The translations under genes and the position numbers were made by a program. A stretch of 24,017 nt of DNA, from positions 1-24,017 of IMG/VR virus record IMGVR_UViG_3300042922_000770. One strand, 5' to 3'. This DNA comes from a virus (Duplodnaviria; Caudoviricetes). Positions 1,121 to 24,017 of this stretch are shown piece after piece (position 1 is the first letter of the stretch; every line of letters starts with the position of its first letter). The notes beneath the pieces are model-generated. The model was not told where the DNA came from. It ran no database searches and was given only the letters and a program-made list of their open reading frames with translations.

Positions 1121-1467
1121 TGGCACTGGAAACATTCACCTGGTCACCACAAAACGGTCCTACGGCAGACATCGAAAACCGGAATACGACTGCGCAATAT
1201 GGCGATGGCTACTCGCAGGTTGTGGGGGACGGGATTAATACGGAATCGCAGTCGTGGCCGCTGACATTTACTGGCTACAAATCGGAAATCCTGCCAATTC
1301 TGGCGTTTCTCCGGTCGCATGCGGAACGTCGAGCGTTCAAATGGATAAATCCGCTGGGTGAACTGGGGCTGTATCACGGGAAGTCGATAAAACCCACCAT
1401 TATTGATTTTGAGCGGATGTCTGTTACGGTCACACTCGTCACGGCCTACCGTGCGGAACCAATTTAA
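1120..1467 (+). CDS. Phage minor tail protein M (lambda gpM-like)
   Basis: 115 aa, METFTW..., AQYGDGYSQVVGDGIN motif, TAATG overlap with the tape measure stop. Confidence 0.92.
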   Translation: MALETFTWSPQNGPTADIENRNTTAQYGDGYSQVVGDGINTESQSWPLTFTGYKSEILPILAFLRSHAERRAFKWINPLGELGLYHGKSIKPTIIDFERMSVTVTLVTAYRAEPI

Positions 1468-1476
1468 GAGGGAAGA

Positions 1477-1824
1477 ATGAAAAAAATTACCGGCGCGCTA
1501 ATGGTGGCGGCCCTTACCGTAACCAGCGTGGCAGCACAGGCACGCGAACTCTCCCCTAAAGAGAAAGGAATTATTGAAGATGTCACTAAGCAGCAGCTAA
1601 AAGATCCGGAGAGCGCGAGATTTTTTTGGCAAGATTACAAGGGTGGGGAAATTTACTGCGCTCACGTTAATGCAAAGAACTCGTATGGAGGTTATGCGGG
1701 AAAGTCACTGCTTATCGCGGGTGTTAAAACTAGCAGCAACGGTGAAATTATATCCGCAGAAGTCACGACCCATAACGACAGTTTGATGAATCCTATCTGC
1801 ACAAAACGCGGTTACAAAGTTTAA
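1477..1824 (+). CDS. Hypothetical secreted/periplasmic protein inserted in the tail operon (moron-like)
   Basis: GAGGG RBS, Sec signal peptide (MKKITGALMVAALTVTSVAAQA), LKDPESARF and YCAHVNAKNSYGGYAG motifs, two Cys, more AT-rich than flanks, followed by a terminator. Confidence 0.85.
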   Translation: MKKITGALMVAALTVTSVAAQARELSPKEKGIIEDVTKQQLKDPESARFFWQDYKGGEIYCAHVNAKNSYGGYAGKSLLIAGVKTSSNGEIISAEVTTHNDSLMNPICTKRGYKV

Positions 1825-8838: not shown

Positions 8839-10059
8839 ATGATTTACACAACAGGCACTATCGCCGCAAATGGCAACACACTGACCGGCACCGGAACCAG
8901 CTGGACGGCGGCAGGCTCACTTATCCGCAACGGTTGCACGGTCATTGTCTTTTCCACCCCGTTACAGGCATTTCAGATAACGAGTATCGACAGTGCGACA
9001 CAGCTTACCGTCACACCCGCCGCCAGCCCGGCAATCGCTGCTGGTCAGCGATACGCGATTCTGGTCAGTGATTCGCTCAGCGTTGATGGACTGGCGCAGG
9101 ATATTGCTGAGACGTTCGGCATGTACCAGCGTTACATGGGGGGCTTTGCTGATGTCATGAACGGCGCCGGCGATGTCACCATCACCATCAACGGTAGCCA
9201 GGTAACCGTACCTGGACAAAAAACGCTGGCGAAAAAAGGCATAAATAAGGACATCACCAGTCTGGAAGGGCTGACCACGCCACTAAGTCGCTCGCAGGGA
9301 GGCACAGGATCTGATTCTCCTTTCGGGACAGCAGCGGGTTCATTCGCACAGGGGAATGATGAGCGTCTCAATACAGTTAGCAACAAAACCGGCGGGCTGG
9401 TAAAAAGCAAAATAGTTTTCAATGCCAACAGCACTTCGAAAGGGATAACCGTAGCTTCACTTAATCCCTCTGACTTTTCTGCTATGTATGCTTCGGATGA
9501 GTCTTCCGCTGTATCGATTTCGCCTGCCAGAGTGACCATAGGCTCATTTTATCCGGAGTTTACCGATAAGCATTACGTTGATGGCAGGTATGCCGGCGTG
9601 TTTTATCGGGGTACCGTTCACACCAATACCGAACCAGTAGTGCACTGGGGGTATACCTTTGAAAGTGGGGCTGTATCTTCACAAATTCTTCAGTACAGGC
9701 CAACACTTGGCACCCTGTATGTCTCAGGTTCTGTAACATCTCCGGTGATTGCCCAGACATCAGATCTGGACTGCAAAGATAAAGTAGAAGTCATACCCGA
9801 CGCCATGTCGAAAATAAATGCTATCAGGGGTGTCACGTTTAACTGGGCCGCAACAGGCTATCCATCGGCGGGTGTAATTGCTCAGGAAATAAAAGAGGTA
9901 CTGCCGGAATGTATTTCTCAGCAGCAAAATGCTGAAGGTGAGAGATTTTATGCAGTTGAGTATGCAGGCGTGGTTGGTTTGTGTGTTGAAGCGATAAAAG
10001 CACTGAACGAAAAAGTCGCGCAACTTGAACGAGCTTTGGCAGGATGTGACCAGGGCTGA
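8839..10059 (+). CDS. Tail fibre protein with C-terminal peptidase S74-type intramolecular chaperone
   Basis: ATG 8839 after GGAG; MIYTTGTI..NGNTLTGTGT.W N-terminus; C-terminal SD...K..V..I..A..KI..IRGVTF.W, GVIAQE..EVLPE, V.Y.G...L.VEAIK.L chaperone motifs. Confidence 0.9.
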   Translation: MIYTTGTIAANGNTLTGTGTSWTAAGSLIRNGCTVIVFSTPLQAFQITSIDSATQLTVTPAASPAIAAGQRYAILVSDSLSVDGLAQDIAETFGMYQRYMGGFADVMNGAGDVTITINGSQVTVPGQKTLAKKGINKDITSLEGLTTPLSRSQGGTGSDSPFGTAAGSFAQGNDERLNTVSNKTGGLVKSKIVFNANSTSKGITVASLNPSDFSAMYASDESSAVSISPARVTIGSFYPEFTDKHYVDGRYAGVFYRGTVHTNTEPVVHWGYTFESGAVSSQILQYRPTLGTLYVSGSVTSPVIAQTSDLDCKDKVEVIPDAMSKINAIRGVTFNWAATGYPSAGVIAQEIKEVLPECISQQQNAEGERFYAVEYAGVVGLCVEAIKALNEKVAQLERALAGCDQG

Positions 10060-10169: not shown

Positions 10170-10607
10170 ATGCAGTTACAACGCCTTATTTTTCCGGACG
10201 TTCCGGTACAGATCCCCATTTACGGGGATCTCATTTCCGCAGGCTTCCCCAGTCCTGCGGCTGACTATATCGAGAGCGGCATCGATCTGGTGTCGCATCT
10301 TATTCCGCACCCGTCCTCAACCTACACGCTGCGCGTATCCGGCGATTCCATGATCGGCGCTGGCATCCTTGATGGCTCACTTCTTCTTGTCGATTTCAGC
10401 ATTCATCCCCAGCATAACGATATTGTCGTAGCCAACCTCGGAGGTGAGTTCACCGTCAAAAGACTGGTGACACACCCGGTGGCACAGCTGCTGGCAGAGA
10501 ACCCGGCCTACCCTGCGATCCCTATTTATGACGCCGACGAACTTGAAATCGTCGGCGTTGTCATTTCCGTCATCAGCACGATGCACCGCAATGTTCGCCC
10601 TCGTTGA
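10170..10607 (+). CDS. umuD: DNA polymerase V accessory subunit UmuD (S24 peptidase)
   Basis: AGFPSPAADY cleavage motif, VSGDSM catalytic Ser, EFTVKRL catalytic Lys; AAGGAGG RBS. Confidence 0.95.
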   Translation: MQLQRLIFPDVPVQIPIYGDLISAGFPSPAADYIESGIDLVSHLIPHPSSTYTLRVSGDSMIGAGILDGSLLLVDFSIHPQHNDIVVANLGGEFTVKRLVTHPVAQLLAENPAYPAIPIYDADELEIVGVVISVISTMHRNVRPR

Positions 10608-11859
10608 TATGAACTCGTTTTACGCGAGTTGCGAAACCGCATTCCGGCCCGATATTGCCGGGCGGCCCATAATCGTTTTAAGCAACAATGATGGCTGCGT
10701 TATCGCCCGATCAGCTGAGGCCAAAAAGCTCGGCATCAAGATGGGCACGCCGTGGTTCCAGTTGCGGGAGACGCCTTTCCAGCAGCCGCTGCTGGCCTTC
10801 TCCAGTAATTACGAGCTGTACGGTGATATGTCGCAGCGTGTGATGACCACGCTTGAGGAAATGTGCCCGCGCGTGGAAGTGTACTCAATCGACGAGGCCT
10901 TTTGTGACCTGACCGGCGTGCGCAATTGCCGTGATCTGGACGATTTCGGGCGGGAAATCCGCGACACGGTGTGGCGTAATACGCGACTGCGTTGCGGGGT
11001 GGGTATTGCGCAAACCAAGACTCTTGCAAAACTGGCAAACAGAGCTGCGAAAGAGTATCCGCAGACCGGGGGCGTGGTCGATTTATCGAACGTCGAGCGC
11101 CAGCGCCGTTTAATGGCGCTGATGCCGGTGGAGGAAGTGTGGGGCGTCGGCAGGCGCATTGCCAAAAAGCTGGCGGCCATGGGGATCACCACAGCGCTCC
11201 AGCTGGCGGACACGGATATTCGGTTTATCAGAAAACATTTCAATGTTGTGCTGGAGCGTACGGTGCGGGAGCTGCGCGGCGAGTCCTGTCTGGAGCTGGA
11301 AGAATTCGCGCCAGCGAAGCAGGAAATTGTCTGCAGCCGGTCGTTTGGCGAGCGCATCACCGACCATGAGGAAATGCGTCAGGCGATCTGCTCTTATGCT
11401 GCCCGGGCGGCGGAAAAGCTGCGCAGTGAACGCCAGTACTGCCGGTACATTTCGGTCTTTGTGAAAACGTCGCCCTTTGCGCTGAATGAGCCCTACTACG
11501 GCAATAACGTCGGCACGAAACTGCTTACCCCGACGCAGGACACCCGCGACATTATCGCGGCGGCCATGCGCTGTCTGGACGCGATATGGCGCGATGGCCA
11601 CCGTTATCAGAAAGCCGGGATCATGCTGGGCGACTTTTTCAGCCAGGGCGTTGCCCAGCTCAACCTGTTCGATGACAACGCCCCACGCGCCGACAGCGAC
11701 GCGCTGATGACGTTACTCGACAAACTCAACAAACAAGGGCGGGGCACGCTGTACTTCGCCGGGCAGGGCGTACAGCAGGCATGGCAGATGAAGCGGCAGA
11801 TGCTCTCGCCATGTTACACAACGCGCCTCTCAGACATTCCTGTAGCCAGGGCGAATTAG
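10591..11859 (+). CDS. umuC: Y-family DNA polymerase V subunit UmuC
   Basis: True start MFALVDMNSFYASCE at 10591 (422 aa); LSNNDGCVIARS, YSIDEAF, W.MKR..LSP.YTT motifs. Confidence 0.96.
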   Translation: MFALVDMNSFYASCETAFRPDIAGRPIIVLSNNDGCVIARSAEAKKLGIKMGTPWFQLRETPFQQPLLAFSSNYELYGDMSQRVMTTLEEMCPRVEVYSIDEAFCDLTGVRNCRDLDDFGREIRDTVWRNTRLRCGVGIAQTKTLAKLANRAAKEYPQTGGVVDLSNVERQRRLMALMPVEEVWGVGRRIAKKLAAMGITTALQLADTDIRFIRKHFNVVLERTVRELRGESCLELEEFAPAKQEIVCSRSFGERITDHEEMRQAICSYAARAAEKLRSERQYCRYISVFVKTSPFALNEPYYGNNVGTKLLTPTQDTRDIIAAAMRCLDAIWRDGHRYQKAGIMLGDFFSQGVAQLNLFDDNAPRADSDALMTLLDKLNKQGRGTLYFAGQGVQQAWQMKRQMLSPCYTTRLSDIPVARAN

Positions 11860-11979: not shown

Positions 11980-13683
11980 CTATATAGCGAGGTCATTGAC
12001 CTTAACGACATAATAGTCTCTGGCTTCTGGAATCAGTCTGTCGACCTTAGCCCCAAATTTTCCAGAGCTGACTTCGTCATAGTCTTGCCCATCCACCTGA
12101 ATGCTTTCGATATTCAGAAGGTGCCAGTGATTTTCTTTATCTTGAATGGCTAGTTTATCTGATTTTGCAACGGTGAAATTTATTTCTTCAGGAATGATCA
12201 GGGAATAGACCGTATTTCCTTTGTAACAGTGATTAAAATTCAACTTATAAATGCTTTCTCTGAAGTTAATTAAACCTTCTTGTTTAAAAGCTTCACGTGC
12301 AGCGGATTTTGTTATAATGCCTGTTTCTATCATGTGATAAATATTAAAAAGTTCATAAGTAAATGTCATGCCTCGGTTAGCCATTTCCGCATCTTCTATT
12401 TGAGTCTCATTAAATGGGATATTTATCCTTTCCATGGGAGCCCTGTAACGTTGATGATTGACTACATAGACAGCCTTGTAGGTATTTCCCGGATTAGACC
12501 TTCTTCTACGCAATGCTATTTTTGAAATTTGGGCACATAGAGCATCTGTTGAGGTTCCTCCAATGCCTTTTACTTCAAGTAAGAAATGAATGCCGTCATA
12601 TTGAAAGTTGAGATCTTCTTCGAATATTTCACCTGCATCCACATCCACGTTTTCATCAGGATCAATGACATTGGTAAACCCAATATATTCAAGAAACCAT
12701 TTTACTGAGAGAACAAGATCATCCCCAGTTTCTTTAAGCATATTTCTTAGCTTAACATTTTTATCATCATTATGAATCATTTCATATTCATTGTTTAGTT
12801 GAGAAATAGTTAGTTCATGGCGCTTTATTTCTTCAGCAATTTCAATAGATTTATTTTTTTCTTCAAGGGAAATATATGAAAAATCTTTAGTCCATGAGAA
12901 GTTATCGTTATCTGGGAAAAGATCCTGAAATTCAGGGAGTTCAGGTAAAACCTTTTCAAATAACTCAGATATAAATGAATCTTTATCAGCTAAGTCTGGG
13001 AAAACCATTATAGTTTTGTTACCTATTTTCCTAATGATGGAAACAGGTTCATTAGAGCCATTTACAGCTAAAACGACATCGTTAGTATATATATTAAATG
13101 CAACATTATAATGTGATTCAGGTAGAAATTTTATCAAGCATTTCTTAATTTCCTGATTGTCATGGCTTTGGTTAATTGAAATTCTATTGCCTGTTCTTTT
13201 GACGATATTGAAATAAGAATGAGGAAGGTAAAGAGAGTCAGATGTCAATTGGTAACCATCAGAGCCCTCGACCTCTATATTATAGGTTTGTTTGTCATAA
13301 TAGCTAGCAAAAAAAATGATAAGTTGTTTTTTATTTGTACTAAATGAATTCTTAATTGCATATGAAACATCAAGCGGAAATAAGTAGGCGACAGATGGTA
13401 TATTCCTATAGTAGACAGAGCGCCCATTATATGTATTTGATACAAAACCTTCACGGGGCGATGTATCTATAATTATTATTTCCGCTTCATGGCAGTTTCG
13501 TGGAACCTCGTTATTATATGGTATCGACATGCCGCCCCTTGAGCTACTGTCGTACTCTTTATAGCCATTCATTTTATGAGCGGAAGAATTAAAGCCTTTA
13601 GATTTTAAAAGCGCATTCATTGCCTCATCAGTATTTAATAAATATATAAGAGGCTGGGAGTTATCAATCATCTTCACATCCAC
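11980..13683 (-). CDS. AT-rich hypothetical protein with restriction-endonuclease-like PD-(D/E)xK domain (candidate defence protein)
   Basis: 567-aa ORF, much more AT-rich than flanks; coiled coil followed by FLEYIGF...EEDL-x9-LLEVKG...Q motif. Start could be GTG 13683 or ATG 13671. Confidence 0.7.
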   Translation of the reverse strand: MDVKMIDNSQPLIYLLNTDEAMNALLKSKGFNSSAHKMNGYKEYDSSSRGGMSIPYNNEVPRNCHEAEIIIIDTSPREGFVSNTYNGRSVYYRNIPSVAYLFPLDVSYAIKNSFSTNKKQLIIFFASYYDKQTYNIEVEGSDGYQLTSDSLYLPHSYFNIVKRTGNRISINQSHDNQEIKKCLIKFLPESHYNVAFNIYTNDVVLAVNGSNEPVSIIRKIGNKTIMVFPDLADKDSFISELFEKVLPELPEFQDLFPDNDNFSWTKDFSYISLEEKNKSIEIAEEIKRHELTISQLNNEYEMIHNDDKNVKLRNMLKETGDDLVLSVKWFLEYIGFTNVIDPDENVDVDAGEIFEEDLNFQYDGIHFLLEVKGIGGTSTDALCAQISKIALRRRRSNPGNTYKAVYVVNHQRYRAPMERINIPFNETQIEDAEMANRGMTFTYELFNIYHMIETGIITKSAAREAFKQEGLINFRESIYKLNFNHCYKGNTVYSLIIPEEINFTVAKSDKLAIQDKENHWHLLNIESIQVDGQDYDEVSSGKFGAKVDRLIPEARDYYVVKVNDLAI

Positions 13684-16460: not shown

Positions 16461-16490
16461 TTGACGTGTCGTGTCGATGCGAGCTAACGT
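16461..16490 (+). promoter_or_regulatory. Putative sigma70 promoter of the icd/anti-immunity operon
   Basis: TTGACG-N18-TAACGT with an A/T-rich upstream tract, just 5' of the first antisense target box. Confidence 0.45.
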
Positions 16491-16552
16491 TATGTCGCTG
16501 CAGCAAAATCTGCAGCCGGGCGTAGGAACCCGGATGACTAAGTGACGCATAG

Positions 16553-16574
16553 ACACGCGTTGGCGTGTTTTTTT
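16553..16574 (+). terminator. Attenuator-like terminator in the icd leader
   Basis: ACACGC-GTTG-GCGTGT followed by a T-run, between the upstream target boxes and the C4-like RNA. Confidence 0.55.
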
Positions 16575-16603
16575 GTATGCGTAGCCTGCACACACCGAAA
16601 TTA

Positions 16604-16681
16604 TGGTGGCTCAGGCGGGGCAGCCTTCGGGCTGGCCGGTACTCACTTAGGCCGGTATTCCTACCCCCGTCTGGGCTACCA
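16604..16681 (+). ncRNA. C4/CI/CA-type antisense immunity RNA (P1 c4, P4 CI, N15 CA family)
   Basis: Closing stem TGGTGGCTCAGGCGGGG/CCCCGTCTGGGCTACCA, CAGCC-TTCG-GGCTG hairpin. Loops TCACTTAG (16643-50) and TTCCTAC (16658-64) are complementary to CTAAGTG(A) and GTAGGAA boxes upstream (16522, 16538) and downstream (16693, 16721). Confidence 0.88.
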
Positions 16682-16739
16682 CCCTACAGAGCGTAGGAAC
16701 TCTGGTGGTAGCGATGCTCACTAAGTGGAGTCACGCACC

Positions 16740-16913
16740 ATGTTCAAATTCAAGTTCGCGGCTATCTGCCGTACCGATCGCAAAAATCATATCCATATTT
16801 TCAGTGCCGTTGCTTATAGCGAGCGCGATGCCCGTCGCCAGCTTGCAGGCCGTGCGCGCAAATTTATCCTGTTCTTTCAGGCTCGCCTGCCAGTCGCAGG
16901 AGGTGCCGCGTGA
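16740..16913 (+). CDS. icd: Host cell division inhibitor Icd/Kil-like protein
   Basis: ATG 16740 after GGAG; 57 aa, F.FAA..R..., A.SER.ARR.L....L.F.ARLP pattern; position directly after a C4-type RNA. Confidence 0.8.
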   Translation: MFKFKFAAICRTDRKNHIHIFSAVAYSERDARRQLAGRARKFILFFQARLPVAGGAA

Positions 16914-17137
16914 ACCAGCTCAAACTGAACGAACACGGCCTGTCGGAATCACTGGAATCGGTACTGGCGCAGATTAACGCGCTGGCCAACGTCGCGCACT
17001 TCACTATCAGCAATGCCAGCGCCTCGATTTATCTGGAGGACGCCGCGCAGCTGCTTATCACAATCAAGAATCTGGCCGCTGAGGCCGAACAGTACCGGAA
17101 CGAGTGGGAAGATCTGATACCACGGTCGCGTCGCTGA
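16910..17137 (+). CDS. Small helical hypothetical protein in the icd operon
   Basis: GTGA overlap with the icd stop, AGGAGG RBS, 75 aa amphipathic helices. Confidence 0.75.
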   Translation: MNQLKLNEHGLSESLESVLAQINALANVAHFTISNASASIYLEDAAQLLITIKNLAAEAEQYRNEWEDLIPRSRR

Positions 17138-18318
17138 TGCTGTACGCCATCCGCGTCCGCCTGTATCCGAACGCCGCGCAGCGGGAGTTTTTTGCTAAGA
17201 CGTTTGGCTGCTGCCGGTGGGTTTATAACGACGCGCTGGCGTACTGCCAGCGCCAGTACGAGGCGGGTGCGCCACGCCCGTCTGCGTACGATCTGATGAA
17301 GCGACTAACGCAGTTGAAGGCTGAATACCCCTGGCTTGCCGATGCGGACAGCCAGGCGCTGAAACAGGCCTGCGCGGATCTGGATGGCGCGTATAAGCAT
17401 TTTTTCCGTCGTGTCAAAAATGGCGAGACGCCGGGCTTTCCCCGGTTTAAATCGAAGCACCGGGGCGATGCCACCTACAACGCCACGGCTGCCACCAGTA
17501 TTGCGCTTGAGCCCCGCCAGCTGAAATTGCCGAAAGCGGGATGGGTACGCTGCCGGGGTGGCAGGGAATGGGAAGGTAAAATCAAACGGGCGACGGTACG
17601 GCAGACGCCGACCGGAAAATACTATGCCACCGTGCTGATTGATGACGGGCGCGACCTGCCGGTGCAGCCAACAACGAACCTGACGCCACTGGGTATCGAT
17701 GTCGGCTGTAAAACCGAAGGGTTCACGCACCAGTTTGTGGCACTGTCGACCGGAGAAATCATCACTGCTCCGGCGGAATATAAACGGCAGATGAAGCGGC
17801 TGCGCCGGGCATCCCGCCGGCTGGCCAGAAAACAGAAGGGCAGCGCCAATCGGTTAAAACAAAAACGCCGCGTCGCGCAGCTGCACGAGCGAATCAGTGC
17901 AGTTCGCCGGGATTTCCTGCACAAACTGACTCACCGCCTGACCTGCGAGAACCAAGCGCTGGCGATTGAGGATTTGAATGTGAAGGGGATGATGGCTAAG
18001 CCGGCACCGAAGCCCGACCCGGAACGCCCGGGCACGTTTCTGCCGAACGGCGCGATTCGTAAGCGCGGGCTTTCCCGGTCGCTGGCCAGCGCCAGCCTGG
18101 GCGAGTTTTTCCGCCAGCTGGAATATAAAAGTGCCTGGCGGGGTGTGGCATTGCTGAAAGTCAGCCGCTGGGAGCCGTCCAGCAAGCGCTGCAGCGGCTG
18201 CGGTGAAATTAACGATGCACTGACACTGGCCGACCGCCGGTGGCAGTGTCCGGCGTGCGGGTCAGAACTGCACCGCGACATTAACGCCGCCATGAATATC
18301 GCCGCGCGAGCGGTGTAA
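17137..18318 (+). CDS. tnpB: RNA-guided endonuclease TnpB family protein, RuvC triad intact, no tnpA
   Basis: ATG 17137 in a TGATG overlap; 393 aa; RLYPN..Q....FG..RWVYN..L HTH, GFPRFKSK, RuvC-I LGIDVG, RuvC-II AIEDLNV, Zn finger CSGC/CPAC, RuvC-III HRDINAA. Confidence 0.95.
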   Translation: MLYAIRVRLYPNAAQREFFAKTFGCCRWVYNDALAYCQRQYEAGAPRPSAYDLMKRLTQLKAEYPWLADADSQALKQACADLDGAYKHFFRRVKNGETPGFPRFKSKHRGDATYNATAATSIALEPRQLKLPKAGWVRCRGGREWEGKIKRATVRQTPTGKYYATVLIDDGRDLPVQPTTNLTPLGIDVGCKTEGFTHQFVALSTGEIITAPAEYKRQMKRLRRASRRLARKQKGSANRLKQKRRVAQLHERISAVRRDFLHKLTHRLTCENQALAIEDLNVKGMMAKPAPKPDPERPGTFLPNGAIRKRGLSRSLASASLGEFFRQLEYKSAWRGVALLKVSRWEPSSKRCSGCGEINDALTLADRRWQCPACGSELHRDINAAMNIAARAV

Positions 18319-18326
18319 CGAAAAAA

Positions 18327-18425
18327 TAGGGCGCGGCCCGCCCGAATCTACGCCTCCGGACATGGCCAGTGCGCCGTGGTAGAAAGAGGAAATTCCCGTA
18401 AATATTTGGTGGGTTTTGACGCTGG
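18327..18425 (+). ncRNA. Putative TnpB omega-RNA scaffold (boundaries uncertain)
   Basis: Directly 3' of tnpB; hairpins GGGCG-CGGCC-CGCCC and CATGGC-CAGTGC-GCCGTG enclosed by CCTC/GAGG; layout resembles tnpB 3' RNAs as recalled, not computed. Confidence 0.6.
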
Positions 18426-18462
18426 CTATAACCAGCTGATTAACCAGCCGAATCCCGCAAGA

Positions 18463-18552
18463 GGTTAGCCTACGCGGGCGGGGATAGGTCGAGGGACCAA
18501 TGAAGATAATTACCGGCGCGCTAGGTTAATCCACGCGGGCGGGGGTAGGTTG
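18463..18552 (+). CRISPR. CRISPR-like mini-array: two ~29-nt repeats with one 32-nt spacer
   Basis: R1 GGTTAGCCTACGCGGGCGGGGATAGGTCG (18463-91), R2 GGTTAATCCACGCGGGCGGGGGTAGGTTG (18524-52), 24/29 identical, 61-nt period; spacer 18492-18523 matches 1469-1500 at 28/32. Confidence 0.7.
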
Positions 18553-18574
18553 CAATTCAGTTGATGAAAGGTAC

Positions 18575-18602
18575 AAAAAAACCGCCATTAGGCGGTTTTT
18601 TT
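18575..18602. terminator. Bidirectional intrinsic terminator
   Basis: A7-CCGCC-ATTA-GGCGG-T7; closes the tnpB/array transcript and the convergent sRNA. Confidence 0.85.
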
Positions 18603-20088: not shown

Positions 20089-20271
20089 CTTAAAAATCCT
20101 TATTGTGATTTATTGGGCACATTCTTATGGATTTGGCGCATGAATAAAAGTGCACGCCGATTTTTTTGAAGTGCTGATTGGTTTTGCGGGCTCACGTAGA
20201 ACAGTCAAAACATTACGGCAGATGGCCAGAACGCGGTAGCTGAACGGGGAGTGCACAAGTTAATCATCAAG

Positions 20272-20575: not shown

Positions 20576-20899
20576 ATGATGAGAAACACCGATGTGACAG
20601 GTGGTTCCGCAAACTTAGCTTTGGCCGGGGCCAAAGATACACGTGTCGAGCTGCGAACCAGTGTCGATATAAAAGAGAAGTTGCGTGCAGCAGCCTCTCT
20701 GGCTGGGGTGGACTTGAGTGCTTTTATTCTGATGGCTGCGACACGAGCTGCACAACAGACGCTGGATGAACAGCGAATGCGTGTGTTTAGCGAGAAAGAG
20801 TGGGATCACATGAACGCGCTTATTAATTCACCCCGTCAGGCTGGCAATAAACTGCGCACGCTTATGACGGGAGAAGTTAAATATGAGCGAGATTTTTGA
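20576..20899 (+). CDS. DUF1778 (TacA/AtaR/KacA-like) RHH antitoxin
   Basis: KDTRVELRTS...KE.L..AA.L.G..LS.FI..AA...A...L pattern, P....L..LM tail; overlaps a GNAT gene. Confidence 0.9.
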   Translation: MMRNTDVTGGSANLALAGAKDTRVELRTSVDIKEKLRAAASLAGVDLSAFILMAATRAAQQTLDEQRMRVFSEKEWDHMNALINSPRQAGNKLRTLMTGEVKYERDF

Positions 20900-21431
20900 T
20901 GTAAAGTTAGTGAAAGGTGATTCCGATGTAAAACTTAACGGAATCAAAAAGTTCGATTGTGGCGACAAAGTTCTGAACGATTTTTTACAGCAACTTAAGC
21001 GCCAGTGCAGCCGTGACAACATCCAGGCATTATTGCTTGTTAATGGTGATGGTACTGTCATTGGGTTTGTTACGGCAGCTTTACAGCAGGTTGGGAAGGA
21101 TGTCATTCCGGAAGGGATTTATCCATACGCACTTCCCCCTGTATTTACAGCTATGAAGGTTCCTATGATTGCTATCGACAAGCAATATCAAAGGCAAGGA
21201 TGGGGACTACAGCTGATGCGCGCTATTTTGGATTACTGTCTTGAAAGCGCAGCATTGGTAAAAGGTATCAAGGGCGTGATCCTTGACGCCAAGGTTGAGG
21301 CTCGCAGCTTCTATGAGGACTTCGATTTTGAAGCGATCAGTGAGGAGGTCAGCCCTAACAATACCATCCCAATGTTCATAACGATGGACACCTTACGGGA
21401 TAGTAAAAGTAAGCTGGATAAAAGCGCGTAG
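20883..21431 (+). CDS. GNAT acetyltransferase toxin (TacT/AtaT/KacT-like)
   Basis: FDCG...LNDFL, acetyl-CoA loop IAIDKQYQRQGWG..L, LDA...A..FYE.F.F motifs. Confidence 0.9.
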   Translation: MSEIFDVKLVKGDSDVKLNGIKKFDCGDKVLNDFLQQLKRQCSRDNIQALLLVNGDGTVIGFVTAALQQVGKDVIPEGIYPYALPPVFTAMKVPMIAIDKQYQRQGWGLQLMRAILDYCLESAALVKGIKGVILDAKVEARSFYEDFDFEAISEEVSPNNTIPMFITMDTLRDSKSKLDKSA

Positions 21432-21644: not shown

Positions 21645-22835
21645 ATGACTGACACAGCCTATTCAAAAAGATTTCAAAGAGAAGTCGACCCTGAGCAATA
21701 CCTACAGCTGGTTGGAGTGGGGATAAACGACATTCATAGCCATGCAAGAGGCGATATTACATGTCCTATATGTGGAGCTGAAGGCGGAACGTTTGTTCGC
21801 GGGGCAACAAACGCAATGCGTAACCGAAGAGCTCACTTTCGCTTCAGAAATGCTGCTGATACGAGCAACCATCACCCAGCCTGTGACTACTACAATGATC
21901 GCCAGTCACCTGAATCAAGAAATCATCAGGTCTATTTTAGTCAAATCGATAAAACCAAAATAACAAAGGTGATACGACACATGGTATGTGCTGGAATTCA
22001 GGAACACCTTTTTACCCCTGACTCACTTCGTCAAATGCGGCAATGGATGTTTCAAAAACGAGTTGCATCGACTTTCATGGTGACGATTAGTTCAGAGCAG
22101 GTAGAGTGGTTAGAGTATCTGCGGGAGAAAGCGCAGGGTTTTATTAATCCAAAAGATATTGCGCCGTTTACACCAATTCAGGCAACCATCCCAGGTTTCT
22201 CCTGGAAAGACGCAATTCATAATGAGTTTATTCGCACTCATTCCTTTAATCTTTCCAAGCTTCAGGAGTTGAGGATATGGTATCCACAACTAAAAATGCT
22301 GCATCAGTTTGTGCGTAGCTCATCGGAAGCGTATCTGATTGACCCTGAGCTGTTAAGGAACGAATACCAAAAAACACGGCAACTGAACAATTTTATTATC
22401 AGCAACTATGCTGAGTTCAAGAATAAGGCGGTAAGGGATCGAGCTGACGGGGAGGTTAAGCTTCTTGCTTTCTCCGCTCTGCTTCTTTTTATTTCTGATT
22501 GGAATGTTGCCCAAGCTATCGAGAAATTCGCAATTATAGCCAATGTTCGTAAGGTTGATGACGATTTGGCTGCCAATTGCATTGGTCTTAACCCTTACCT
22601 TCGATATGAACTCGCTGAAACGGCTAAGAAGCTTCAAGAGAACGGCCCTTTCGATTATCAAGATATTGACTATTGGCAAGTCGAGCAACGAATGCGGCAT
22701 ATGTATGAAAAGGAAAATATTTCCCGCGCTGTGCCGCTTCCCCCACTGCCGGCTGATGAATACATTACACAACATCGGAAAAAAGAAGAGGATGAGGAAC
22801 GAATAAGACGCATGCTGAACAGCGAAGGAATATAG
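21645..22835 (+). CDS. Hypothetical protein with N-terminal Zn-ribbon-like motif
   Basis: 396-aa ORF, GGAG RBS, CPIC...AHFRF...HHPAC (CoiA-N-like arrangement); remainder unrecognised. Confidence 0.7.
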   Translation: MTDTAYSKRFQREVDPEQYLQLVGVGINDIHSHARGDITCPICGAEGGTFVRGATNAMRNRRAHFRFRNAADTSNHHPACDYYNDRQSPESRNHQVYFSQIDKTKITKVIRHMVCAGIQEHLFTPDSLRQMRQWMFQKRVASTFMVTISSEQVEWLEYLREKAQGFINPKDIAPFTPIQATIPGFSWKDAIHNEFIRTHSFNLSKLQELRIWYPQLKMLHQFVRSSSEAYLIDPELLRNEYQKTRQLNNFIISNYAEFKNKAVRDRADGEVKLLAFSALLLFISDWNVAQAIEKFAIIANVRKVDDDLAANCIGLNPYLRYELAETAKKLQENGPFDYQDIDYWQVEQRMRHMYEKENISRAVPLPPLPADEYITQHRKKEEDEERIRRMLNSEGI

Positions 22836-23032: not shown

Positions 23033-23584
23033 ATGCGAAACATAGTAAATGGAAAAAAACCTGACAATAGCGCTATGGCAAAGAAGATGTTAATTATGCT
23101 GGTTATCACTATCATGCCATTGCCAATTGCTTTCGCTATCTTCTTAAATGATCCTCAATCTCAAATGCTCAGTTCCATATCTGCAGCAACAAGTGACTTT
23201 CCTGTACTCTGGTCCGTTAATAATCCCTTACTTAGTTCAGTGATGAATGCATGGTGCAAGACAGCGCCTTTTTGGGGATTGATTTTATTTATAATGTCAT
23301 TTAATCACATTGAAATAAATGGCAGGCAATCAGCGAGAGAAATGGTCAAAGGACTTGTATTATTCTCAGTGTTGTACTTTCCAATAATGTATATGTTGTT
23401 GCTTCACTCTACGGAGATAACTGAGTCCGGTAAGATTTATCAGGTAATGTCACAAAATGACTTTTTGCTGACTCTGCTTTTCATGAGTATTTATGCGGTG
23501 TGTTATATATCTACTGCTTATTACCTGCTCATAGTTGCTGCAACATGTAAGGCCTTAAGTAAAAAACGCAAGTTGTCATTTTAA
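23033..23584 (+). CDS. Colicin A/B/N-type immunity protein (inner membrane)
   Basis: 183 aa, four hydrophobic segments, P..WS.NNPLLS..M..WCKTAP motif, convergent with a pore-forming colicin gene. Confidence 0.88.
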   Translation: MRNIVNGKKPDNSAMAKKMLIMLVITIMPLPIAFAIFLNDPQSQMLSSISAATSDFPVLWSVNNPLLSSVMNAWCKTAPFWGLILFIMSFNHIEINGRQSAREMVKGLVLFSVLYFPIMYMLLLHSTEITESGKIYQVMSQNDFLLTLLFMSIYAVCYISTAYYLLIVAATCKALSKKRKLSF

Positions 23585-23602
23585 TTTCCAGATTATAAAA
23601 AT

Positions 23603-23632
23603 AAAAGGCAGACGGTTTCCCGTCTGCCTTTT
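23603..23632. terminator. Bidirectional terminator between immunity and toxin genes
   Basis: AAAAGGCAGACGG-TTTC-CCGTCTGCCTTTT. Confidence 0.85.
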
Positions 23633-23634
23633 AA

Positions 23635-24017
23635 TTAACGCGCCGGACGAATCACTTCATTGTTGATTTTGTCGACCAGCTTATCATCAATAAGTGATGC
23701 AGCCAGGCTGATCGCGATAACGCCGACGATCATGACTGCGGTTACCGGCAGGCCAGCTGTAGACGCAAGGAAAGTAGCCAGCGATGCAAGAATGCTCAGC
23801 GCAAAGCCTGTTGCAATACCGCTTAACACCCACGACTCTACTTCAAGCAGTAACGGCTTCCAGTTTCCGGTATTGATGCCTTCGATAGACTTCTGTCGGG
23901 CTTTCTCAACTTTCATGATTATATCCGCAGCAGAAAAAGCCTTGCCCAGATAAGCGAACTTATAGGCCATATCGGTAGCATTAAGATGGTTCCATGCATT
24001 GATAATCGCGGCTTTGT
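23635..24017 (-). CDS. Colicin A-like pore-forming bacteriocin, C-terminal part (5' end outside window)
   Basis: Frame open to the window edge (KAAIINAWNHLNATDMA...); MKVEK.R.KSIEG..TGNW.PL.LEVESWVLSGIA, hydrophobic hairpin and IDDK..D..NNE.IRPA end closely match the colicin A channel domain. Confidence 0.93.
   Translation of the reverse strand, partial: KAAIINAWNHLNATDMAYKFAYLGKAFSAADIIMKVEKARQKSIEGINTGNWKPLLLEVESWVLSGIATGFALSILASLATFLASTAGLPVTAVMIVGVIAISLAASLIDDKLVDKINNEVIRPAR

Follow-up and report, generated by a model that had tools for sequence, protein, structure and literature searches.

A phage-plasmid TnpB with a type I-E-derived array in its predicted omega-RNA, probably reprogrammed by host Cas1-Cas2

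Can a TnpB nuclease carried by a phage take its guides from a CRISPR-like array, and where would such an array and its spacers come from? The question is raised by a stretch of 24,017 nucleotides, called here the window (positions 1 to 24,017 of the IMG/VR record IMGVR_UViG_3300042922_000770), which is part of an N15-like phage-plasmid with tail genes, umuDC and sopAB. The reading we favor, with a probability of roughly 70%, is that the host Cas1-Cas2 reprograms the phage TnpB through a type I-E-derived leader and repeat situated in the predicted omega-RNA, and that the guides direct cuts in competing phages. It rests on sequence: an intact RuvC domain, the conserved order scaffold-leader-repeat, variable spacers matching other phages, and extra spacers at the leader end. 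The features concerned are the following.

1466..1500, + strand: self protospacer (1469-1500) with an AAG flank (1466-1468), mismatched, spanning the start of a 115-aa accessory gene
16484..16686, + strand: C4-type antisense RNA control region ahead of the operon (C4, a1/b1 targets, overlapping isrK match; Rfam, above the gathering score)
16725..16913, + strand: icd-like gene that opens an immA-like operon (NCBIfam NF033153, E 5e-15)
16910..17137, + strand: 75-aa gene, second in the operon, without Pfam or NCBIfam family
17137..18318, + strand: tnpB (Pfam), 393 aa, third gene of the operon, no tnpA
18327..18398, + strand: predicted omega-RNA scaffold (covariation, 12 cassettes) with stem 1 (18329-18343), pseudoknot loop 18335-18338, stems 2 and 3, and anti-repeat 18392-18398
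18399..18462, + strand: type I-E-like leader with the upstream motif at -55 (motif profile), also a predicted RNA hairpin (fold)
18463..18491, + strand: repeat 1, I-E-derived, 18/29 identical to the E. coli repeat
18492..18523, + strand: spacer, 32 nt, 28/32 identical to 1469-1500
18524..18552, + strand: repeat 2, terminal, slightly degenerate
18575..18602, no strand assigned: intrinsic terminator, likely bidirectional (fold -15.4 kcal/mol)

The two repeats are identical at 24 of 29 positions and have a period of 61 nt, with the first one starting 145 nt past the tnpB stop (18318). These values, as well as the 29/33 identity between 18491-18523 and 1468-1500, agree with an earlier note made from the sequence alone. 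The spacer start, placed in that note at 18491, had to be moved: base 18491 is the last G of the repeat, and orthologous arrays set the spacer at 18492-18523. The self-mismatches, listed as positions 7, 8, 15 and 17, thereby become 6, 7, 14 and 16. The motif TTTAA, proposed as preceding the target, is shifted by one base should the guide begin with the first base of the spacer, and the flank ends with AAG. The guide could begin one base inside the spacer; the guide register is thus uncertain by about one base, and so is the exact motif, because canonical ends suggest such an inner start. The 22-nt tail is followed by no repeat, and no target was found for it. As for the terminator described after the tail, a 12-bp hairpin with A/T runs is present at 18575-18602 but is absent from the terminator scan. 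At 20200-20260 the window has an apparent 5' remnant of a second cassette, unscored by the RNA model and by local alignment; a decayed second cassette is also seen in the closest relative (L267:2651-2804).

The self-match of the window spacer exceeds chance: 28/32 was observed, and 200 mononucleotide shuffles of the window gave the 32-nt spacer no match better than 22/32. The gene hit at its start (1477-1824) belongs to a family of 55 matches that has no Pfam name. One homologue of the 55, P0130, starts with the same eight residues that the spacer encodes, which fits the view that the spacer is a captured homologous allele; its source is likely a sibling allele of the 115-aa gene. A search with the spacer, suggested earlier as a check, gave no perfect DNA target in PLSDB or IMG/VR.

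A further proposal was that the phage uses the guide to repress its 115-aa gene, whose start the self-match covers, with TnpB binding over the ribosome-binding site without cutting, as TldR does. The AAG flank of the self-match is kept, and in Klebsiella, too, a spacer lies over a start codon, that of terL (24/32). Nevertheless, we find this proposal scarcely credible. The RuvC residues are intact in 35/35 aligned proteins, most self-matches at other loci fall within coding sequences (telN, parA, J) and not at starts, and the spacer fits the sibling allele better than the self allele. Besides, all four mismatches fall in the first 16 positions, two of them within the TnpB seed, described as about 12 bp long (PMC13639567).

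Operons of the immA type are on early in infection and silent in lysogens. In N15 and phiKO2 the immA operon is described as containing icd and an antirepressor gene (PMC10612081). The third position of the operon, held by tnpB in the window, is occupied in siblings by a BRO-family gene, and an ORF of 75-88 aa precedes tnpB in most loci of the clade. The catalytic residues D188/E278/D381 and the four zinc-finger cysteines are invariant in the 35 aligned proteins; judged by these residues, the window TnpB is catalytically intact. Its closest natural match in the PDB is ISDra2 TnpB, over the full length (E 7e-68). The protein scores over the cut-off of the TnpB model NF040570, while NF038281 gives 342, below its cut-off of 425. 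The PADLOC profiles Cas12u4 and Cas12f score as well, which is expected for TnpB-like proteins.

Among the best 120 homologues, 71 are 56-94% identical to the window protein and the next ones are at about 45%, so defining a tight clade; a quick tree places it at 29 rows with SH-aLRT 93 and three subclades without resolved order. A search of 36 sequences (700 kb) gave no match to tnpA, cas1, cas6 or cas7. The context differs from that of an insertion sequence, with neither tnpA nor a canonical right end, a conserved phage operon around the gene, and spacers in the guide position. In Salmonella, a cluster of the protein (P0013) has about 660 members. The 1.5-kb locus had no match among 5,426 E. 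coli genomes, and protein searches found the clade protein in none of 401 sampled genomes of the family of G001, in 1 of 285 genomes of the genus of G003 and in 2 of 36 of the genus of G002. The closest tnpB relative (L009:10001-11181, 94%) is frameshifted, with the L009 array intact.

Elsewhere the window carries umuDC-like genes (10170-11859), a TacA/GNAT toxin-antitoxin pair (20576-21431), and the C-terminal end of a likely colicin-like gene with a colicin immunity gene opposite to it (23033-24017). Two AT-rich inserted genes of 567 and 396 aa (11980-13683 and 21645-22835), both without a Pfam match, are possible defense cargo.

Downstream of the tnpB stop we observed a conserved scaffold of about 70 nt, with the leader and repeat 1 predicted to lie inside the omega-RNA. 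Repeat bases 18479-18485 would pair with the anti-repeat, bases 18487-18490 would close the pseudoknot, and the leader (about 64 nt) and the repeat would fill the loop of stem 4, with the leader folding out as a hairpin. In ISDra2 the pseudoknot is described as linking the loop of the first stem to the bases that directly precede the guide (PMC10097598). Across 16 cassettes, counted without the near-duplicates L002, L004, L007, L122, L123 and L006, the pseudoknot loop and the repeat end form 63 of 64 pairs, compared to a shuffled mean of 58.1 (P 0.0002). The seven distinct loop/handle types give 27 of 28 pairs (P 0.014), slid registers give 5-33 pairs, and the host handle only 1-3 of 4.

In the 12-row alignment 95.7% of the cells of the whole structure are paired versus 84.1% in shuffles, and 16 of the 32 structure pairs are doubly changed (0/500 shuffles as high), the structure having been derived from the same sequences on which the pairs were counted. 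Within the pseudoknot a single pair is changed on both sides, and the two cassettes involved lie on one contig. The locus L253 has two cassettes with different loops, each matching its own different handle. When run against 37 sources, a covariance model made from 12 cassettes picked up the single-guide RNA of Aeromonas phage phiARM81ld (49 bits) as well as, in L013, an RNA end of the canonical IS605 type (35 bits, E 8e-8); its match to a host I-E leader-repeat was weak (18 bits). The minimum-energy fold of the whole cassette was no better than that of shuffles (z -0.78), and Rfam gave no CRISPR or omega-RNA family match in the window. The omega-RNA scaffold, which the first reading had missed, is still present and is predicted to pair with the repeat. 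In this model the repeat has been adapted to the RNA of the TnpB, with the host sequence lost at the bases that close the pseudoknot.

Several variants of the cassette were observed. A second scaffold-leader-array cassette, with its own repeat and a matching loop, is located upstream of tnpB in L253 (G227), L042, L011 and L200. In L011 there are compact forms that lack a leader, and part of the scaffold is duplicated. A leaderless single-guide form (L121:11194-11308) stands amid array-bearing proteins in the quick tree and is possibly a reversion. In the genome G208 (L291, L294), a full cassette adjoins only a short C-terminal remnant of tnpB, and a lone repeat lies at another place in that genome. 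Behind the icd-BRO operon of a Citrobacter phage-plasmid that lacks tnpB there is a degenerate sequence resembling omega-RNA (L280:23022-23157, 36.5 bits).

The origin of the leader and the repeat was assessed with respect to 17 host I-E arrays, those of E. coli K-12 and of 16 of the 19 cas2 loci from 201 genomes. The upstream leader motif, at -55 in the window, is found at -54 in 14 of the 17 host leaders; ten of its bases are common to the window and E. coli K-12 at nearly equal distance, and its profile score exceeds that of all 1036 sampled window positions (1036/1036). With the same profile, the leader segment falls into the top 0.35% of positions for 10 of the 16 phage cassettes and at 1.8% for one more; the five failures are a decayed Klebsiella copy and four leaderless cassettes. 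The other leader segments are less host-like. At the IHF site the window scores 3.5 versus a host leave-one-out minimum of 4.3, with scores mostly below the host minimum, and the leader-end segment matches the host profile in 2 of 16 cassettes; because of these weak matches, integration by the host Cas1-Cas2 may be inefficient.

First repeats of the phage cassettes are identical to the nearest host repeat at 14-18 of 29 positions, and BLASTN with one cassette found chromosomal I-E arrays, with leader and repeat, in 2 of 36 genomes apart from the one it came from. Type I-E features present are the 29-nt repeat, the 32-nt spacer, the upstream leader motif, the AAG flank and growth at the leader end; those missing are the 6-7-bp repeat hairpin, the 8-nt host handle and linked cas genes. 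From these similarities we conclude that the array is type I-E-derived. The first reading, of arrayed guides, has support in the sequences; it overlooked that leader, repeat, spacer length and AAG flank all have this origin; given these four features, the spacer source likely is the host Cas1-Cas2. Two of the three host genomes carrying the system, G002 and G003, have no cas1 or I-E cas2 match. The genome G227 has an I-E cas1 and the longest arrays of the set.

With every acquisition feature being of type I-E, the phage might simply carry a mini-array read by the host Cascade-Cas3, the TnpB being a neighbor that uses its own scaffold only or nothing. The AAG, ATG and GAG flanks described below fit Cascade, and virus mini-arrays that rely on host effectors have reportedly been described. 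Also, the cassettes L291 and L294 have no intact tnpB alongside. The repeats themselves, however, argue for the TnpB. The host hairpin register, which gives 5-6 of 6 pairs in the 17 host repeats, gives 2-4 of 6 in 14 phage repeats and is broken in 14/14, so the guide would be shielded from Cas6e cleavage. Hairpins of 4-5 bp that end at base 21 do arise when the register is shifted, and the phage handles mostly agree with the host in their first three bases. At positions 25-26, on the other hand, 17/17 host repeats have AA, and in 12/12 phage repeats this pair of bases begins with G; the phage handle differs from 17/17 host handles at the loop-pairing positions and covaries with the TnpB RNA loop, even between the two cassettes of one locus. 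Moreover, L281, a sibling without tnpB, has no cassette, and 7/7 scaffold matches in PLSDB are tnpB plasmids. We therefore regard a Cascade-read array as unlikely, and continue with the TnpB as the reader.

Comparison of the orthologous loci, as had been suggested, showed conserved repeats and variable spacers. Out of 19 spacers, six matched targets at no less than 30/32, a 1-nt gap being needed for one of them, five at 26-28/32 and one at 24/32; the remaining seven (L002.1, L009.1, L011.2, L253u.1-3 and L253d.1) had no target in the one or two collections searched for each. The flanks of the six near-perfect targets were AAG (four), ATG and GAG, and two of the six also had alleles with AAT or GAA flanks. 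The four AAG targets are two tape-measure sites, a head-closure gene and the protelomerase of sibling phage-plasmids; the ATG target is the start of a P2-like integrase, present in 6 contigs. The GAG target, that of spacer L253d.2 in the G227 array, is a 31/32 match to the lysis region of a lambdoid prophage of G227 itself (L306, G227:C1:903237-903270), a match which a fully active nuclease might not tolerate in its own host genome.

Among the five matches at 26-28/32, three had an AAG flank and one fell in a repeated intergenic site. The L042 spacer (9927-9958), preceded by a repeat ending with A and not G, matched the 5' end of tnpB in related elements at 28/32 and 27/32; judged from these matches, nucleases of rivals may themselves be targets. 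A longer motif with T five bases upstream (6/7, P 0.0013 uncorrected) failed in two further spacers and was rejected, and the left flank ending with TGAC in Olsenella IS elements was too distant to serve as a motif guide.

Self alleles were always either mismatched or differently flanked (window, L008, L043, L010, L005). The mismatches were weakly PAM-proximal, with 15 of 20 in positions 1-16 (P 0.02) and 10 of 20 in positions 1-10 (P 0.06). As far as sequence can tell, the view of a phage TnpB standing alone, with arrayed variable guides against related phages and mismatched self alleles, is supported.

Acquisition was assessed in 8 sequencing runs, four of them marked as potential origins of the query sequence. 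In five of the 8 the L007 spacer was retained and preceded, on the leader side, by one additional spacer, of which two different ones were seen; one run bridges it on a single contig. The other three runs carried different spacers. Two different leader-end spacers in front of one common distal spacer indicate polarity of growth, though for one event the alternative may be a loss of the leader-end spacer in L007.

The targets bear on another reading, in which the TnpB is mainly a reprogrammable free-standing homing endonuclease: a cut in a co-resident sibling would cause recombination that spreads the cassette, and the rival would not be destroyed. Most targets are homologous genes in siblings, one site is common to siblings that have the tnpB operon and siblings that lack it, and free-standing homing nucleases of phages are described as acting in this way (PMC13565253). 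Yet the targets are spread over whole genomes, including P2-like and lambdoid prophage regions that have no common insertion site, and the tnpB operon itself is located at several unrelated sites across the loci of the clade. Homing as the main role is very unlikely in our estimate.

The system may also be real in the clade while the window copy is a spent or silent relic, with a single spacer left without a target. The absence of a perfect target in PLSDB and IMG/VR would agree with this, as would the frameshifted tnpB of L009 and the decayed cassettes in L005, G900 and G208. We consider a relic quite unlikely, given that the ORF, catalytic residues, scaffold, leader motif and repeat 1 of the window copy are all intact and that P0130 carries the N-terminal peptide encoded by the spacer.

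The favored reading, reprogramming of the TnpB by host Cas1-Cas2, would work as follows. Host Cas1-Cas2 would add AAG-flanked 32-nt spacers at the leader-repeat junction. In the model, the omega-RNA has its 3' end at this same junction, and the spacer added last would therefore serve as the guide. The operon transcript would yield one RNA made of scaffold, leader hairpin, repeat 1 and newest spacer. The 3' half of the repeat would form stem 4 and the pseudoknot of the omega-RNA, and each acquisition would swap the guide. The scaffold is contiguous with repeat 1, and its anti-repeat is predicted to be able to pair in trans, which may let repeat-spacer units further downstream use the scaffold in this manner, as in TranC. 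The TnpB would accept an AAG-type motif and cleave rival phages, the allele of its own phage escaping through PAM-proximal mismatches or an altered flank.

On the history of the system we are evenly divided. It may be that a 393-aa TnpB became adaptive with an unsplit guide when an I-E leader-repeat was captured in stem 4 and the repeat was reshaped to complete the pseudoknot, with Cas1-Cas2 writing the guides. For the origin of type V arrays, Altae-Tran et al. are reported to favor duplication of an omega-RNA segment, with capture of an existing array staying possible (PMC10691335). If true, this history would show, in a system still alive, how type V CRISPR can arise by capture of a pre-existing array; one and the same clade would still hold single-guide, leaderless and two-cassette forms. 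Host type I-E is plainly recognizable in the repeat and leader, as is IS605 in the scaffold, and the protein (393 aa) is no larger than a TnpB. In their conflicts with one another, N15-like phage-plasmids of Salmonella, Klebsiella, Xenorhabdus and Vibrio likely have a weapon in this system. The nuclease is very small and has a predicted short AAG-type motif; the predicted spacer writer is E. coli's own I-E Cas1-Cas2, and the parts are testable in E. coli.

With respect to known systems, titles and abstract openings among open-access papers gave nothing on this clade or on an I-E leader inside an omega-RNA, and one supplement file of PMC10691335 had no match to host or type names. With TnpB of IS200/IS605 elements (ISDra2; PMC10097598), as described, the window system shares the domain set and, as predicted, the layout of stem and pseudoknot by the guide; it differs in that tnpA and the canonical right end are missing and the putative guide is a captured spacer and not flanking DNA. 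TldR is likewise described as a domesticated, prophage-borne TnpB; it is, however, catalytically dead with a fixed guide targeting promoters, whereas here D-E-D is kept (RuvC intact, 35/35) and the spacers are variable.

Type IV-A3 of Klebsiella plasmids also has a mobile-element array with an I-E-like leader and repeat, directed at rivals; host Cas1/2e lengthens it in trans, with AAG as the motif (bioRxiv 10.1101/2023.06.23.546257). Its effector is described as multi-subunit and nuclease-free, in contrast to the single RuvC protein with a scaffold RNA here.

The Cas12r-CRISPR of Thermus Lalka phages (bioRxiv 10.64898/2026.04.20.719267) is described as similar in many ways: a TnpB-derived phage nuclease, degenerate 29-bp I-E-like repeats, 31-33-nt spacers, an ARG PAM and polarized acquisition, with no cas1-cas2 reported. 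The same source proposes host I-E adaptation and a conflict between mobile elements, and reports cutting with these repeats. Unlike the ARG rule, two of our six near-perfect flanks (ATG, GAG) are not ARG. Cas12r has 564 aa, so the 393-aa protein is 170 aa shorter and has no significant similarity to it (best E 0.018). Cas12r reportedly works with crRNA alone, whereas here a full predicted omega-RNA is fused with an I-E leader; the scaffold model had no match in the Lalka27a (Cas12r) locus. By these comparisons the window system is not Cas12r, and the two appear to be of independent origin with similar working.

Finally, TranC (Jin et al., Cell 2025) is described as having a TnpB-sized effector by an array and an omega-RNA-derived structure that pairs with the repeats, as here; CauTranC9 is phage-borne, with a clade average of about 414 aa (bioRxiv 10.64898/2026.03.27.714800). 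In TranC the omega-RNA is described as split into tracrRNA and crRNA, whereas here the first guide is apparently unsplit and the repeat is predicted to come from a class 1 system. The reported TranC repeats are 38 bp in clade 9 and 32-38 bp in clades 3, 11 and 20, compared to 29 nt here, and LaTranC matches the window TnpB at the C-terminus only (E 1e-18). A conserved adjacent array, variable spacers and a 5' motif on the targets, as in type V and TranC, are all present. The system fits the TranC concept, and it may belong to a further TranC clade or a V-U group.
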